A DNA stretch of 64,000 nucleotides from Desulfatiglandales bacterium (GTDB taxonomy: Bacteria; Desulfobacterota; DSM-4660; Desulfatiglandales; Desulfatiglandaceae): the NCBI GenBank assembly GCA_963662465.1, contig OY759599.1, positions 2,144,001 to 2,208,000 of the forward strand, in the 5' to 3' direction. The notes below the pieces were generated by a model. It did not search any database. It was not told the DNA's origin and saw only the letters and a list, made by a program, of their open reading frames with translations. The number at the start of each line of letters is the position of its first letter. Positions within the stretch are counted from its first letter, which is position 1. This document shows, in pieces, positions 1-38,604 of this stretch. Position numbers and translations under genes: made by a program.

Positions 1-789
1 GACTCCTGGTTCGGGAGCGGTCCATTTGTAAAAGGCCTTAAAGGCTTGAAGTTGAGTTATGTTATTGAAATAAAGTCAACTTTAACCGTAAGAATCCCAT
101 GCAAAGAGCCTAAACTCACCCCCAAGGGTAAGATATCTAAGAAGCAGCATGACCTTATCAAATTGCCCAATGTTTTTCAGTCTACATCATCCTTCAGCAC
201 ATGCGGTTTTGCCGCCAATATGGGCATTGGCAAAAAGGAAAAAGTCCTGTATCATACCAAAGTTATCACGGGGAACCTGAACTCTATTGCCGGAAAACAT
301 AGGATTGTTCAAAGTGTTGACCCAACCAAACAAACCACCAAATATCTTCTCACCAATGAACTCACCTGGGAGGCCACCAAGATTATTTCCGCTTATAGCA
401 ACAGATGGGTTATCGAGGAATTTTTCAGGAATGCGAAGCAGTTAACCGATATGGAGGGAGCCACTATTAGGAGCGAGCAAGGCGTGACATTAGCGTTATG
501 CCTGGTGTCCTGGATTGACTCCCTCCTCCATCTGGAAAACTATAAGCAAAGCACTGCTGGAAAATTGCCAAAGGAGCCATTAACGGTTCCTTCGATAGTC
601 CGTTTGGCTCAATACGATAATCTTGAAACTTTTCTGGATCGACTTCAAAAGGAAGATGGGCTTCTCAAAAAGTGGTGTGATGTTGAACAAAAAGGTTTGG
701 TCAGAAAGCGGAAGAAATCTAAAGAGTTGATAAAGCTACAAGATTTCTCTGAAGACCGTTCCCGGAAACAATTATCAAAGGCTGCATAA
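1..789 (+). CDS. DDE transposase, IS701/IS4-like, 5' end outside the window
   Basis: Frame is open from base 1 (DSWFGSGPF..., a DSWF/Y motif). It has YLLTNEL and RWVIEEFFRNAKQ (RWxIExxFR signature). A possible element end ...AAAACTCAAG lies at about 846. Confidence 0.75.
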   Translation, partial: DSWFGSGPFVKGLKGLKLSYVIEIKSTLTVRIPCKEPKLTPKGKISKKQHDLIKLPNVFQSTSSFSTCGFAANMGIGKKEKVLYHTKVITGNLNSIAGKHRIVQSVDPTKQTTKYLLTNELTWEATKIISAYSNRWVIEEFFRNAKQLTDMEGATIRSEQGVTLALCLVSWIDSLLHLENYKQSTAGKLPKEPLTVPSIVRLAQYDNLETFLDRLQKEDGLLKKWCDVEQKGLVRKRKKSKELIKLQDFSEDRSRKQLSKAA

Positions 790-1160: not shown

Positions 1161-1350
1161 ATATAAGATCTTATAAGAAATCGCTTTTTTAAAAACGAGA
1201 TGTAACGAAAACGGACTTGGGCGTCACGTCCCCCATGGTCCACCTATGCAAGATGTGACACCAGATTTTTTCCAATGCTTATTGACAATATATTATTCAT
1301 TATGATAAAAAAATTCCTATATTGACAACATATGATCTCTTAGATGGGAT

Positions 1351-1650
1351 ATGGATTTCGAGTTAAAAACAACCGGAGAAATTGCACAACTACTGGCAAA
1401 GCAGGTTAAAGAGCTGCGCCTCCTGAACAAATGGAAACGTTCCACCATGGCCGAAAGATCCGGTGTTTCCGAGTCATCCCTGCGGCGGTTTGAGCAAACC
1501 GCCAGGATTTCGCTGGAAAATTTTTTGAAATTATTGTCAGCACTTGGGCGACTTGATGAAATGGACGATTTGTTGCTCCCCCCCTCCCCTAAATCAATTG
1601 ACGAACTTGAAACGCGAAAGCATAAACTTTCCAAAAGAGGTTCAATTTGA
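1351..1650 (+). CDS. hipB: XRE-family HTH antitoxin/regulator (HipB-like)
   Basis: HTH motif KRSTMAERSGVSESSLRRFEQ; stop codon overlaps the TTG start of hipA. Confidence 0.85.
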   Translation: MDFELKTTGEIAQLLAKQVKELRLLNKWKRSTMAERSGVSESSLRRFEQTARISLENFLKLLSALGRLDEMDDLLLPPSPKSIDELETRKHKLSKRGSI

Positions 1651-3012
1651 TCCGGCTAAATGTCCTTTTGCGCTTTAATGAAAATACGATGATCCCCGTG
1701 GGTCAGCTTGCCGAGGACCAGCACCGGCTCTATTTTCAATATGATAAGGATTTTTTAACTAAAGAACTGTGGCTGTCTCCCTACAAGCTTCCCTTAAAGT
1801 CAGAGCTCTTTGAACACAAAGACAGAGATTTCAGCCCTGTCTTCGGCTTGTTTGACGATTCATTGCCTGACGGGTGGGGCCTTTTGTTTATATGAAAGTT
1901 TCCGGTTTCCAGTTGACGGTTTCCGGTTCATTCCGTGCTTTTGTGCTATCGCTTGGTACAAATGGACACCAAAAATTTTCATCATTCGTTGTGGCCCGCG
2001 GCCATGGGGGTTAATGGATCGATACCTTAGGAAACAGGGATATGACATTGAGGCCCTGTCTATTTTGGATCGACTGGCATTTCTTGGCAAGAACACCATG
2101 GGCGCTCTGATCTATGAACCTGCCCTGGATATTATTCCCGGCGATAACAGCCCGTTTGATTTGCATGATTTATCAATACATTCACATGACATCCTGTCCG
2201 GCAGGAGCGACGACGTGTTACCACAGCTTATAGCCGCAGGCGGCAGTCCCTGCGGGGCCCGGCCAAAAGTACTTGTTGGCATTTATAATGACAATATGGT
2301 TTCCGGAGAAACAGATCTTGCGGAACATTTCGAACACTGGATTATCAAGTTCCTCTCTGGAAATGACTTCCCTGATGCCGGTCCCCTGGAGTATGCCTAT
2401 TCTTTGATGGCGCGGGATGCCGGTATAAATATGACCGAAACACGCCTATTTAACACAAACCAGGGTGATATTTTTTTCGGCATTAAACGATTTGACCGCA
2501 GTGGCAATAAACGCTTTCATGCCCATACTTTCGGCAACCTCATACATTCAAATTTCAGGATACCTTCTCAAGACTATGATCACTTTTTCAAGGTGGTCAT
2601 AAACCTGACTAAAAACCATCAGGATTTACTCCGGGCTTTCAGGCAAATGGTTTTTAACATACTTGCGAATAACCGGGACGATCATGTGAAAAATTTCGGA
2701 TTCCTGATGGATCATGAGGGCAAATGGTCGCTGTCACCGGCATACGACCTTGTTTATTCAGCCGGCCCCGGGGGGGAACACTCCATGACTGTTTCAGGTG
2801 AAGGGAAGGCTCCGGCTGAAAGAGATATTTACAAATTGTCCGAAAAGCACGGCATAAAAAAAAAGGATGCAGTCCTGATAGTTGAGCAGGTTTCTGATGC
2901 TGTAAATCGCTTTCAAACCCATGCGCTAACTGCCGGTGTCTCCAGATCCACCCGGAATAAAATTAATGCCGGCATCAAAAATAATCTTGATGGATTGGGC
3001 CGGTCTAAATAA
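1647..3012 (+). pseudogene. hipA: HipA-family Ser/Thr kinase toxin interrupted by a 124-bp insert
   Basis: N-part ends DSLPDGWGLL (1886) and C-part starts LMDR (2011). It has GGSPCGARPK, NRDDHVKNF and SPAYDL motifs. Removing 1887-2010 restores a 413-aa ORF. Confidence 0.9.
1887..2010. mobile_element. 124-bp non-coding insertion bounded by GTT
   Basis: GTT at 1886-1888 and 2010-2012. Internal ATGAAA...TTTCAT inverted pair encloses TTTCCGG-type heptamers. Subterminal TGGCC-cgc-GGCCA hairpin. Confidence 0.75.
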
Positions 3013-3035
3013 ACCGGAAGAGTTTGAATGAAATG

Positions 3036-3710
3036 TTAAAGGAACAGATTAAATACCGCCATGGCAATTAAGATGCCGTAATTGACGCTGCACCAGCCCT
3101 TTATCCGCAGGGACCGACTGAGGTAGGCGTTGTTCCTGTAGAGCATCAAAGGCAATATGATGCCCCCCTCCCCTTCTACGCGCAAATAGACGGTTACGGG
3201 CTCTTCGGATTCCAACGGCAAAGTAAAAAATGGGAGTTTTTGACCGGAGGAGCCTGCAACCAAATCGACAGGGGTACCGCCCTCCTCGGTAACCCATCCA
3301 CCCAAATCGCTCCCCGGTGCGCCAACGGATGTGCGGACAAAAAACCTTGTAAAAAGGGTCAACGGCCAATTGACGTCAAGGAGCCATTCGCCAGGAGGCG
3401 AATTGTCACCCGGTACGGTTTCGGCTTGAATCGTAAGCCGTATCCAAAAGGCGGAATCGTTTAACCCCAGGTTCAGGGTCTTTGAGCCAACCGGTTTGAA
3501 TGCTTCAGCCAAGGGGGGAGTAGCGACGTCATCAATACACCACTTACGATCCTTATCCTCCAGGATTTCCGCGTAGGGAGAGACGTCATAGCGGTTCCGG
3601 TCAGACCTGAGCTGAAGCGCGGGAACAGTCCCGGCCCCGCATACCGGCGCCACGAGCAGGCACAGGATCACTACCAGGAGGAGTTGTGGATATGCTGATA
3701 TTTTTTTCAA
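3036..3710 (-). pseudogene. 7TM-DISM sensor N-terminus (signal peptide plus extracellular domain), truncated in the first TM helix
   Basis: LNLGLNDSAFWIRL, TVYLRVEG, then YGILIAMAVFNLFL followed by a stop just beyond the hipA end. Confidence 0.75.
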
Positions 3711-25893: not shown

Positions 25894-26270
25894 TTAAAAC
25901 TCCCCCGAATCCATCGCCCTCCTCACGGCCCCGGCCAGGTCGCTTCCGATCAAAGGCTTCATGATGTAAGCCTTTATGCCCAGATCCCCGGCCCTTTTCC
26001 CGCTCATCTTATGACTGAACCCGCTGCACAGGATCACGGGGATATCCGATCGAATTTTCATGAGTTCCCGTGCCAATTGTTCGCCGGTCATGCCGGGCAT
26101 GTTCATGTCCGTAATCACCAGATCGAATTAATCCGGCGTGTCCTTGAAAAGTTCAAAGGCCTCCACGGGGTTCGTCCTTGCCTCGACACGGTAACCCAGT
26201 GGTTCCAATATCCGCTTTCCCAGTTTCGCAATGGTCAACTCATCATCCACAAAGAGAATCCGCAAGCGGT
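25894..26270 (-). pseudogene. Receiver domain remnant of a hybrid kinase with an in-frame stop
   Basis: RILFVDDELTIAKLGKRILEPLGY...DTPD*FDLVITDMNMPGMTG...MKPL. Confidence 0.8.
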
Positions 26271-26368
26271 AAGCCTTTCGGTAAGCAGAGGACTTCGGAT
26301 TGCATTAGAAAATCACTATGAGATTGGGAACTTATAAACTGACGAACGTGCCCGTGCCCCAACCCTTT

Positions 26369-26405
26369 TTTTCATAGCAAAACCATGTGAGACATGCTAT
26401 GAAAA
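26369..26405. repeat. Palindrome upstream of a TA module
   Basis: TTTTCATAGCA...TGCTATGAAAA perfect 11-bp arms. Confidence 0.7.
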
Positions 26406-36298: not shown

Positions 36299-38281
36299 AT
36301 GAACGATCCAAAACCCATTCGCGTCCTTGTGGCTGAAGACGACTTTCTCATCGGTGAAGAAATCGTCCGGGTCTTGAAAAAGCTGGGGTATGATGCCGTC
36401 GGCACAGCCGCCAATGGCCGGAAGGCGGTTGAGATGACCGGCGCCCTCCATCCCGATGTGGTACTCATGGATCTGAAGATGCCGGTGCTGGACGGGATTA
36501 GCGCCACCCGGCAAATTCAAGCCGCCTGTCCCACGCCGGTGGTCATCCTTACGGCCCACGAGTCCCGGGATCTCGTGAAAGAGGCCGGGGAGGCAGGGGC
36601 ACTGGCATACCTCACCAAACCGCCCAGGGAAGATGAAATCGGACGAGCCATTGCCATCGCCATGGCCCGGCATGAAGATTTCATGGCCCTGCACCGTCTC
36701 AACCGGGACCTCAACCACCAGAAAGAAGCCCTTCACAAGTCCGAAACCTGGCTCCAGAGCATCTTCAATTCCCTGGAAGAAGGGGTCTTTGTGGTTACCC
36801 CCGACCGGAAGATAGCGAACATGAATAATGCGGCCCAAAGGATGTTCGGATATGCACGGGAGGAGCTTTTGAACCGCGCCCCTGATTTCCTTCATATGGA
36901 TCAGGCGCATTATGAGGAATTCGGCCGACGGATCAACGAGGCTTTCGATAAGGGGAGGGTAGCTAACTTCCAATTTGAAATCAGGCGAAAAAACGGTGAA
37001 ATATTTCCCTCCGAACACACCGTCACCCCCCTGAAAAGTCCAACGGGCGAGCCCATGGGCATTGTCAGCGTGGTTCGAGACATCACAGAGCGGAAAAAGA
37101 CGGAGGAAGCACTTCTAAAAGCCCGAAAGCTCGAATCCATGGGCATCCTTGCGGGCGGCATTGCCCACGACTATAACAATCTGCTCTCCATGATTATGGG
37201 CAACCTATCCCTGGCCAGGGAAGATGCAAAGCCGGAATACGGGATTTCAGAATTCCTGGAATCGGCTGAGGACGCGGCCGGGAGAGCCGCTGAGTTAACC
37301 CGTCAAATGCTGCACCTTTCCAAGGGGGGCGGCTTCCTGGCCAAAAGAACGGCCGCCATCGGAGGGGTCATTGAGAAAACCGCCGCGAAGGCTTCGGCGG
37401 GTTCCGGGGTTACCTGCGATTTTTCCATTCCGAACGATCTGTGGCAGGTTGAATTCGATGAAGATCAAATGAAACAGGTCATCGGCAATGTGGTAACAAA
37501 CGGGGTGGAAGCCATGCCCAAGGAGGAAACCATCGCCATAAAGGCGGAGAATGTTATCCTGCGTGAAGACAGCCAAAATCCCGACCTTCCGCTCGCAGCG
37601 GGAAAATATATAAAGATCTCCATTCAAGATCAGGGAATGGGCATTCCCCCGGAGCACCTCCCCAAGATCTTTGACCCCTACTTTTCAACCAAGAAGATGG
37701 GGGTCCAAAAAGGAATGGGGCTGGGCCTTGCAACGGCCCTTGCCATCGTCAAGCGGCACGGGGGGCACATTGGCGTAACATCGCGGGTGGGGGTCGGAAC
37801 CACCCTCCGCATTTTTCTGCCGGCTTCCGAAGAAAAAGTCCGGCAACCCATATCCGCCGCGGGTACGCCCCCAATGGACCCGCAACCCTCCGAAACAAAG
37901 AGAATTCTCATCATGGACGATGAAGAAATGTTGCGAAACCTCGGCAAAGAGATGCTCACTCGCCTGGGCTATGCGGTTGAAACGGCCGGGGACGGGGCTG
38001 AAGCCATCCGGTTGTACAGGACGGCACGGGAATCGGGGGAACCTTTTGACGCGGTCATTCTGGATCTGACCATCAAGGGCGGCATGGGCGGGAAAGAAGC
38101 CATTCGGGAATTGCAAACCATAAACCCTGAAGTGAAAGCCATCCTGTACAGCGGCTATTCCGAAGATCCCATCATGACCCACTTCCGGGAATATGGGTTT
38201 TGCGCCGCCATGGCCAAGCCTTATCAGTTGAAGGATTTGGCGGATAATTTGACGAAGATCCTGGGGAAAGAAAGGAAGTAG
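36299..38281 (+). CDS. REC-PAS hybrid histidine kinase with C-terminal REC
   Basis: LMDLKMP, GGIAHDYNN, GMGLGL, ILDLTIKGGMGG. Confidence 0.95.
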   Translation: MNDPKPIRVLVAEDDFLIGEEIVRVLKKLGYDAVGTAANGRKAVEMTGALHPDVVLMDLKMPVLDGISATRQIQAACPTPVVILTAHESRDLVKEAGEAGALAYLTKPPREDEIGRAIAIAMARHEDFMALHRLNRDLNHQKEALHKSETWLQSIFNSLEEGVFVVTPDRKIANMNNAAQRMFGYAREELLNRAPDFLHMDQAHYEEFGRRINEAFDKGRVANFQFEIRRKNGEIFPSEHTVTPLKSPTGEPMGIVSVVRDITERKKTEEALLKARKLESMGILAGGIAHDYNNLLSMIMGNLSLAREDAKPEYGISEFLESAEDAAGRAAELTRQMLHLSKGGGFLAKRTAAIGGVIEKTAAKASAGSGVTCDFSIPNDLWQVEFDEDQMKQVIGNVVTNGVEAMPKEETIAIKAENVILREDSQNPDLPLAAGKYIKISIQDQGMGIPPEHLPKIFDPYFSTKKMGVQKGMGLGLATALAIVKRHGGHIGVTSRVGVGTTLRIFLPASEEKVRQPISAAGTPPMDPQPSETKRILIMDDEEMLRNLGKEMLTRLGYAVETAGDGAEAIRLYRTARESGEPFDAVILDLTIKGGMGGKEAIRELQTINPEVKAILYSGYSEDPIMTHFREYGFCAAMAKPYQLKDLADNLTKILGKERK

Positions 38282-38549
38282 GTCAGGGTGCGGCGCGTCC
38301 CATTCTTTCCTCTGATGCTGTTGAATCCCAAATGGGTTGAAATCCATCAAACGACCGAAAAAACCCCAACGCGCCGTTCCCTGACATTCTTACAACCACC
38401 CCAACGTCGCCAATGGGATTATCGGTTTATGCCGAATCAATGTCAGGTAATCCCGCGTGTGGACATGTGGGATTTTGTACGTTCATGGGGGTTGGCATGA
38501 AAATCGAAATTTCGAGGTAAAAATGTGAACGCGGGACAACCTGACCTAC
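38278..38549. repeat. GTAG-type REP doublet with expanded loops
   Basis: 38278-98 pairs with 38369-85 and 38442-58 pairs with 38529-49; outer ends GTAGGTCAGG / CCTGACCTAC. Confidence 0.7.
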
Positions 38550-38604
38550 GGACTACGGGCTATACGGCTTTTCCCCTCCGGGAAAGATAATGCTTCATTC
38601 TTCA

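Follow-up and report, generated by a model that had tools for sequence, protein, structure and literature searches.

What has cut the toxin gene hipA of a Desulfatiglandales bacterium in two, and how did the intervening DNA reach its place? The gene lies near the beginning of a 64,000-nucleotide stretch of contig OY759599.1 (assembly GCA_963662465.1, positions 2,144,001 to 2,208,000), called the window here. Plain positions are those of the window, and positions prefixed by C1 are those of the genome, G000. A preliminary description, made from the letters of the window, attributed the interruption to a GTT-bounded insert of 124 nt belonging to an unnamed new cassette system. The insertion is real and well bounded, and the insert is an IS110-family miniature, not a new kind of system. 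Because the same two termini bound a full-length insertion sequence (IS) encoding an IS110-family DEDD transposase, the insert is best explained as a non-autonomous miniature derivative of that IS, which has a transposase of the RNA-guided type and an IS1111-like layout. We give this reading a probability of about 85%.

The interruption of hipA and its empty site

The 124-nt insert separates hipA into two frames. The first (1647-1895) terminates at a TGA; the second is open from 1810 to 3012 and encodes HipA from 2011 onward. Pfam domains were found in hipB (HTH_3, E 1.5e-7), in the first hipA piece (Couple_hipA, E 2.8e-9) and in the second (HipA_C). A helix-turn-helix antitoxin gene followed by a kinase gene with Couple_hipA and HipA_C, together with an intact paralog, identifies the pair as a HipBA type II toxin-antitoxin system.

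The empty site can be read in two related genes. An intact hipA paralog, 98% identical and with an open frame of 420 aa, lies 47 kb upstream in the same genome (C1:2098587-2099582), and a hipA ortholog in the related genome G016 (92%) reads through the insertion site uninterrupted. At this site the paralog DNA is …GGGGCCTTTTGTTAATGGATCG…, that is …TTTTG-TT-AATGG…, with a single G-TT-A, and its protein reads …PDGWGLLLMDRYL… (GWGLLLMDR). The alignment of window and paralog DNA is interrupted at window 1891/2010. Since both paralog and ortholog show the site uninterrupted, the insert is exactly 124 nt. Its removal restores a HipA of 80 + 333 = 413 aa, as the preliminary description had calculated. 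The borders may slide by 3 bases (1886-1888 / 2010-2012), because G-T-T is present on both sides. It had also been said that the insert has no terminal inverted repeat, and a search gave none; a single long inverted repeat is present, in a subterminal position (1892-1915 / 1959-1982).

The features of the locus are as follows; R1 is a covariance model of the insert's right end.

1351..1650, plus strand: intact hipB-like antitoxin gene (HTH_3), from the open reading frame (ORF) and Pfam
1647..1895, plus strand: 5' fragment of hipA, 80 native codons and then F-I-stop from the insert; colinear with the intact paralog up to 1888
1887..1888, no strand: TT core, left copy (together with 1886, G-TT), which comes from the target or is shared; from the paralog empty site and the tally of solo junctions
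1889..2012, plus strand: 124-nt miniature IS110-family element, left to right end on the plus strand, border range 1886-2009 to 1889-2012; the parental transposase would be on the minus strand; from the empty/filled pair, copies with the same limits and the IS termini
1889..1898, plus strand: TATATGAAAG, the left terminus, corresponding to the end of the parental IS that is distal to the transposase; from family conservation and the identical IS terminus in Desulfonema magnum
1892-1898, plus strand: arm ATGAAAG of the subterminal repeat, inside the left terminus
1899..1933, plus strand: variable centre with heptamer-like direct repeats GTTTCCG GTTTCCA GTTGACG GTTTCCG GTTCATT
1973..1982, plus strand: subterminal inverted repeat, right arm (…TTTTCAT), which in folds pairs with 1892-1901
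1974..2015, plus strand: core motif of the right end, TTTCATnnTTCGTTGTG-hairpin-CATGGnnGTT, corresponding to the end of the parental IS that is proximal to the transposase; R1 56.7 bits, E 6e-13, the sole significant match in the window
1992..2004, plus strand: hairpin 2, TGGCC-CGC-GGCCA, conserved in shape and not in sequence
2011..2012, no strand: right copy of the TT core; G-T-T is conserved at 93-94% in 82 sequences
2013..3012, plus strand: 3' part of hipA (HipA_C), otherwise open, DNA 97.8% identical to the intact paralog

The insertion at codon 80/81 shifts the frame, and a TGA within the element ends the N-terminal piece; this hipA copy is therefore inactivated, with hipB intact. The antitoxin and an intact hipBA paralog remain in G000.

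The complete hipBA module is present twice, 47 kb apart and about 98% identical (window 1339-3066 and C1:2097087-2101082, locus L213), and only the window copy is interrupted. Upstream of hipBA, window 1-789 holds a transposase-like ORF of 262 aa that is open at its 5' end.

Copies of the insert and the family to which it belongs

A second copy in G000, 97% identical, is found at C1:4198893-4199019, downstream of a Lon-like BREX gene. The congener G010 has three full copies and one without one 21-nt internal repeat unit. These six copies in two genomes are 94-100% identical, have unrelated flanks, are all bounded N-TT|TATATG…GGRGGTT|A, and have the block TTTATATGAAAG…CATGGRGGTTA in common. The element is thus multicopy with a breakpoint common to all copies, as had been anticipated. 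Since the empty site in hipA already held TT-A, the mobile unit is TATATGAAAG…CATGGnnGTT, placed after a target TT. The earlier statement that only GTT is duplicated holds at hipA but not in the family, where TT is constant and the preceding base varies. For the second G000 copy and one G010 copy, 11 genomes of the genus each were searched for the empty site, without success.

The right-end pattern (TTTCATnnTTCGTTGTG-N9-12-CATGG) matches at least 123 stretches of public genomes. Among the matches listed, most are Desulfobacterota of several orders, and a few are metagenome-assembled genomes (MAGs) labelled Omnitrophota, Victivallales, Solibacteraceae or Cyanobacteriota. One architecture, consisting of left end, free centre and right end, is seen in 86 matches (80 loci with DNA). 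The family is made up of two-hairpin elements of 70-190 nt that can be written TATATGAAA…, variable centre, …TTTCATnnTTCGTTGTG-hairpin-CATGGnnGTT. The left end is TTTATATGAAA(R). The centre, which differs freely among subfamilies, is a strong hairpin or a set of 7-8-mer tandem repeats, and the right end consists of (Y)TTTCAT-nn-TTCGTTGTG, a hairpin with a 5-bp stem, and CATGG-nn-GTT. In 53 of 63 matched cases the left end and the right core are 25-150 nt apart, which gives whole elements of roughly 70-190 nt. Many copies are arranged head to tail, and their junction, …CATGGnnGTT|TATATGAAAG…, is the circle junction that had been deduced in the preliminary description.

Hairpin 2 covaries. In 82 aligned right ends 94.6% of the cells are paired and 69 are double-change cells, a number as high as this being reached in 0 of 500 shuffles; all four Watson-Crick pairs occur at one position. 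G-U pairs are not in excess among the mispairs (TG+GT 6, CA+AC 8), so nothing points to a strand-specific RNA. The base beside TTTCAT is T in 47, C in 25, G in 7 and A in 3 of these sequences; complementary left-arm bases (A, G, C) are present among the copies listed. At 38 solo left junctions, T stands at -2 in all 38 and at -1 in 37 before TATATG, and the third base is T in 19, G in 7, A in 6 and C in 6. To the right of GTT, A is found at +1 in 19 of 31 solos and T at +3 in 23.

The repeat is rare and orphaned in G000, where R1 matches in four places: both copies, plus one right-end relic at C1:2111463 and another at C1:1266839. G010 has six such places; G061 (D. magnum), G062 and G063, all Desulfobacterota, have at least 149 apiece. 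R1 matches in 10 of 123 sampled genomes of the window's class, and this patchy distribution is typical of a mobile element. Outside G000 the element is mostly found outside genes (50 intergenic, 21 in crude ORFs). No recurring neighbour gene emerged when 1639 crude ORFs from 80 loci were clustered, the top cluster occurring in 5 loci. In D. magnum (38 places, origin assumed at coordinate 1) orientation shows no bias with respect to replication (7+/8- in the first half, 12+/11- in the second). Relative to crude neighbouring ORFs there were 19 antisense and 7 sense cases in co-directional pairs, figures too rough to interpret.

Both relics have been placed in their surroundings. The first (R1 30.9 bits) lies in C1:2109500-2116500, where a Y1_Tnp gene is in three pieces and the relic, together with higB-higA, stands between the middle and C-terminal pieces. 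This region is downstream of what we take to be BREX genes (PglZ-like and Lon-like). The second (R1 35.3 bits, in C1:1264800-1271800) is about 0.9 kb from a long CRISPR-like array, deduced from a repeated translation motif in the ORF list.

Termini shared with an IS110-family insertion sequence

Long intervals from a left to a right end are rare. Of four candidates three were due to chance, and one, L099, led to the IS: here a 419-aa ORF, read from the opposite strand, is enclosed by a left and a right end. The transposase contains the Pfam domains DEDD_Tnp_IS110 and Transposase_20 and scores 225-242 bits (L099, 242) against the NCBIfam model NF033542, 'IS110 family RNA-guided transposase', for which the cut-off is 140 bits. 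Homologs of the L099 transposase with 58-77% identity are present in G021 (one), D. magnum (11 identical copies) and G062 (one). The IS is about 1.76 kb long, and some D. magnum copies are in tandem, spaced 1763 bp.

In D. magnum and in L099 this 1.76-kb IS is bounded by the termini TATATGAAA… and …TTTCATnnTTYGTTGTG-hairpin-CATGGnnGTT. Among the D. magnum copies, five share one sequence from TATATGAAAC… to …CATGGGAGTT (also TATATGAAACTC… to …GTTTCATCCTTTGTTGTGTCCGCAGGACATGGGAGTT) and diverge exactly there. Three of the left flanks are unrelated and end in TT, and two copies abut the GTT of a miniature; on the other side, TATATGAAAG of another miniature comes next in all five. Since it is exactly at the termini of the miniature that these copies part from their flanks, the transposing unit has those termini. 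The preliminary description had been prepared to abandon its new cassette system should the insert prove to be the end of a catalogued IS; the insert is made up of both ends of an IS110-family IS, and the proposal is given up. The same work had named the IS110/IS1111 world by analogy and spoken of a small mobile element without an enzyme of its own, and here the match of the termini agrees.

The spacing between the right end and the gene is well conserved. R1 is found in 12 of 12 genome loci; it lies upstream of the gene, 76-83 nt from the transposase start, and on the other strand, and all nine D. magnum IS loci scanned have a transposase-proximal match with the same score, 45.1 bits. Relatives of the transposase were also collected from 79 metagenome loci. 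Twenty-three of them are at least 51% identical, 21 with enough upstream DNA; R1 lies 63-85 nt upstream on the opposite strand in 19 of the 21 and about 193 nt upstream in one, and in one there is none at E<=0.01. More distant relatives (36-53% identity; L309-L364) come from soil and sediment metagenome contigs. A weaker R1 is present about 190-215 nt upstream in 10 of 56 such loci, and since the distant clade carries this weaker version, the motif is older than the close clade. Downstream of the transposase, 10 of the 21 close-relative loci read …TTTCATATA and then AA, which is complementary to the TT core. In G010 a stump of such an IS survives, truncated by another transposon: it comprises the first 84 codons at 64% identity and has R1 73 nt upstream.

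Four IS have roughly 87-118 nt of non-coding DNA upstream of the gene and 212-395 nt downstream, the longer downstream region being a trait of the IS1111 subgroup. In the available excerpts of a paper on IS1111-type members, the downstream region encodes the seekRNA (PMC11187229). The downstream region of nine relatives contains a conserved block of about 100 nt with an invariant GGTCG/TGACC stem and with copies of the end motifs ATATAAAA, AACATG and GCACAACGAA. It has 18 predicted pairs, of which 3 show a compensatory change in a hairpin (9 sequences), and is a candidate guide RNA.

The hipA insert has termini identical to those of the IS and no transposase gene within its 124 nt; its copies have unrelated flanks, and one empty site is known. 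These are the properties of a non-autonomous element. It is not a MITE (miniature inverted-repeat transposable element) in the strict sense, having no terminal inverted repeats and no fixed-length target duplication, only the shared TT.

In D. magnum, three loci (L132, L258, L268) are arrays of up to about ten mini-elements with a period of 89-243 bp, and full IS copies are found at the array ends.

Proposed mechanism and points against it

The miniature would have retained just two IS ends around its variable centre: TATATGAAAG, and the proximal 45 nt or so, TTTCATnnTTCGTTGTG-hairpin-CATGGnnGTT. By analogy with the characterised IS110-family elements IS621, ISEc11 and ISPpu9, it would be excised as a double-stranded circle with the junction …CATGGGGG-TT-TATATG…. 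Conservative recombination at a two-base TT core shared by circle junction and target would then leave a TT at either border and duplicate nothing else. A full-length IS would have to supply the transposase and its guide RNA in trans. The frequency of head-to-tail arrays suggests that the element's own end (…GTT|) is a favoured target, in which case the hipA site (…TTTTGTT|AATGG) would be a looser hit. If the reaction is conservative, precise excision could occur, and a reversible switch is conceivable for such a recombinase; it is unlikely in G000, because the enzyme is lacking there.

Several observations weigh against derivation from this IS. There is no match to the cognate transposase in G000 at E<=1e-10 and no tblastn hit at E<=0.01 with three queries, and at that level the only full-length IS110-family gene of that genome is unrelated to it, with R1 absent from its vicinity. 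The preliminary description had seen no recombinase in the window, and the same can now be said of a cognate one in all of G000. The hipA copy is therefore probably a frozen relic, most likely immobile. The cognate IS was also not found in four of seven copy-rich genomes, all draft MAGs (G063, G091, G043, G060); assembly may have dropped a repeated sequence, or the loss may be real. G063 is without any IS110-family match, and none of eight other IS110-family loci carries R1. No joint, circle or empty allele turned up in the contigs of three public runs, a type of data in which rare forms stay invisible; in run X3, a contig contains the second copy and the flanks that belong to it.

Two further points concern the IS itself. 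Characterised IS110-family elements are highly site-specific, whereas the targets here look loose (T-rich, then TT|A-N-T) and much less specific. The geometry of the ends also differs. IS1111 has subterminal inverted repeats of 11-13 bp and terminal extensions of 7 bp and 3 bp, according to the excerpts available (PMC11187229); the repeat described here is shorter (7-10 bp), one extension is 3 nt (TAT) and the other, about 36 nt, contains a hairpin.

Alternative explanations

Could the element be an independent repeat, similar to repetitive extragenic palindromic (REP) sequences and having its own mobiliser, with the IS as a parasite of one position inside it? The 'shared termini' would then be halves of the host repeat. 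IS110/IS1111 elements are known to target REP-like palindromes, IS1111 being found in QMITE2 and IS621 and ISPpu9 in REP according to the excerpts available (PMC10969869, PMC12288879). Miniatures far outnumber the IS in D. magnum (at least 150 as against 11), and the failure to detect the cognate IS in four of the seven copy-rich genomes would also fit. This explanation is nonetheless improbable. The D. magnum IS copies stand in different flanks, and five of them have letter-identical 'halves' that diverge exactly at the miniature termini, whereas the free miniatures of this organism differ in centre and hairpin. Transposases that are only 51-77% identical keep the spacing from end to ATG, and the hairpin sequence varies along with the transposase. 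The end motifs, moreover, are repeated in the downstream non-coding region of the IS.

The preliminary description had drawn a parallel with integrons, in which small, circle-derived units, the attC cassettes, insert at GWT/GTT secondary sites. A cassette with little beyond attC, inserted by an integrase as a folded single strand at such a GTT, would account for the GTT duplicated at hipA, where the crossover is alike, and for the imperfect palindrome formed by the joined ends; G000 has five matches to the integron integrase model TIGR02249 above cut-off. The parallel fails in the details. There is no inverse-core pair (R''/R', RYYYAAC / GTTRRRY) and no RYYYAAC partner for GTT, the junction being GTTTATA with no TATAAAC in the element. 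GTT falls in an unpaired stretch of the fold, and TT alone is constant, the base before it not being fixed. There is no link with an integrase: G063, with its at least 149 copies, has a best TIGR02249 score of 112.5 bits (cut-off 265), and a crude attC scan found nothing near four integrase genes, where a k-mer scan gave IS91 tandem units and no cassettes like the insert. No neighbouring protein recurs, and the termini are those of an IS110-family IS, so that this origin is very unlikely. Equally little likelihood attaches to a single-strand element that depends on hairpins, is mobilised by an HUH enzyme and is pasted 3' of a short target identical with its own 3' end, whether an IS200/IS605 miniature, a REP/RAYT repeat or an IS91 rolling-circle derivative. 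The lack of terminal inverted repeats, a duplication of at most 2-3 nt, a hairpin that covaries and lies 8 nt from one end, a target TT that equals the element's last bases, and head-to-tail arrays would all suit it, and G000 has 30 Y1_Tnp matches as well as IS91-family genes. The end motif, however, is within about 1.5 kb of none of 17 Y1-transposase loci in three copy-rich genomes, and no matching ends were found at the 30 G000 Y1 loci, save chance 11-15-mers and one relic beside a broken gene. The left end lacks a hairpin like the right one, and the termini belong to an IS with a DEDD transposase. Least probable of all, to the point of being hardly credible, is a structured RNA or intron-like sequence removed from the transcript of a hipA that still works. 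The two hairpins fold on either strand, and an open frame runs through the element into the 3' part of hipA; against this, there is no Rfam match at E<=10, the fold z-scores are only -1.2 to -1.7, the non-Watson-Crick cells lack a G-U excess (6 as against 8), all four differences between the two G000 copies change an amino acid in the open frame, and the same element is mostly intergenic elsewhere.

Relation to known systems

The only described precedent found in the literature for a miniature IS110-family derivative of this kind is MITEPpu9, and the accessible parts of a MITE review mention IS1111 only as a visitor of MITEs (PMC10969869). Full-text searches with the end-motif strings TTCGTTGTG, CACAACGAA, TTATATGAAAG and CTTTCATATAA returned nothing relevant, and nothing useful was found on Desulfobacterota repeats. 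In the available excerpts of the MITEPpu9 report, ISPpu9, an IS110-family element of Pseudomonas putida KT2440, forms circles joined at an invariant AG core, and MITEPpu9, its MITE-like satellite, forms circles of its own with the IS transposase (PMC12288879). A GCCC-N4-GGGC palindrome near the left end of ISPpu9 is described there as well (PMC12288879). The parallel is close, the palindrome included. The MITEPpu9 / ssr9 module, like the insert, is small and gene-less, with IS end boxes and an invariant core dinucleotide, and like the family described here it is found alone and beside the IS, sometimes in tandem. The differences are of several kinds. The core here is TT and not AG, and no known small RNA gene lies in the module. 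MITEPpu9 has 8 copies, whereas this family reaches at least 149 per genome, in long arrays and in several orders. Its targets are loose or the element's own end, in contrast to the host REP sequences used by MITEPpu9; and circles, known for MITEPpu9, would be expected here by analogy.

The parental IS resembles IS110/IS1111 elements with a bridge RNA or seekRNA (IS621, ISEc11) in its match to NF033542, its two Pfam domains and its lack of terminal inverted repeats and of a real target duplication, the guide RNA in this case being predicted. With the IS1111 type it has in common a long downstream non-coding region and short subterminal repeats (PMC11187229), although these repeats are shorter than those of IS1111. 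In number and habit the family is reminiscent of REP/BIME/REPIN sequences, which depend on RAYT enzymes of the Y1 HUH class: hundreds of short, hairpin-forming, mostly intergenic copies, in clusters. It differs from them in that the element is asymmetric, with two different hairpins, is not found flanking Y1 genes (0 of 17 loci), and has ends that match an IS with a DEDD transposase.

Biological and practical implications

For annotation, the insert accounts for a hipA pseudogene and gives a name to a repeat that automatic pipelines leave unmarked; no Rfam match above noise was obtained for the insert, the second copy or three full IS loci. Strict MITE finders require terminal inverted repeats. 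Of greater interest are the numbers that the family reaches elsewhere and its habit of stacking on itself; it shows that a REP-like load in the hundreds can have its origin in an IS110-family element. Tentatively, this could be the first large, multi-order family of REP-like repeats descended from an RNA-guided IS110-family recombinase and not from a RAYT or DDE transposase, with units down to about 70 nt present in hundreds per genome and stacked head to tail because their own end is a preferred target; we regard this as possible, with the odds somewhat against it.

If so, the family would be a natural library of minimal donor substrates from which the bases needed by the recombinase-RNA complex might be read. 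For the study of bridge recombinases it offers many very short natural donor units that share TATATGAAA, the TTCGTTGTG segment, a hairpin conserved in shape only, and CATGGnnGTT. A matching full-length IS exists in a cultured, fully assembled organism, which makes minimal cis-requirements and loose or self-directed targeting testable. On the tentative reading, insertions of the hipA type could, where the enzyme is present, be precisely excisable and serve as reversible gene switches.

Other repeats and mobile elements in the genome

Two other sites in the window had been connected with the insert in the preliminary description. The junction said to recur at 38484 is there as a string, CATGGGGGTTGGCATGAAA, at 38484-38502 (0 expected, 100 shuffles), and the CATGGGGGTTGGCATGAAA-type pattern has three sites genome-wide; but it belongs to an unrelated repeat. 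This different repeat, of about 307 bp (window 38278-38584), has 10 full-length copies that are 90-100% identical, and R1 gives 8.1 bits there (E = 3). It also has partial copies and imperfect terminal inverted repeats, GGTCAGG…/…CCTGACC, and is a candidate for a classical MITE unrelated to the hipA insert. The palindrome reported at 26369 likewise exists, at about 26363-26405, but is single-copy in the genome and is not matched by R1. It adjoins an 89-bp relic (26265-26353) of the 3' end of a multicopy Y1-transposase-like gene, reading …ENHYEIGNL, stop, then TAAACTGACGAACGT, whose parent gene encodes 337 aa with a Y1_Tnp domain and a DnaA-C-like helix-turn-helix tail (loci L067-L071). A small toxin-antitoxin-like gene pair lies past the relic and the palindrome. 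The 30 Y1_Tnp matches of G000 fall in several subfamilies. IS607 was considered as a mobilising partner of the miniature and rejected, being above cut-off in G062 only.

Elsewhere in G000, at C1:4412355-4425229 and 4425408-4426355 (L365), there are eight identical tandem units of 1609 bp encoding an IS91-family transposase (Y2_Tnp + Zn_Tnp_IS91). They directly adjoin a tyrosine recombinase gene that scores 445 bits on TIGR02249, well above the cut-off of 265. These units may be rolling-circle multimers or the result of integron-like capture.

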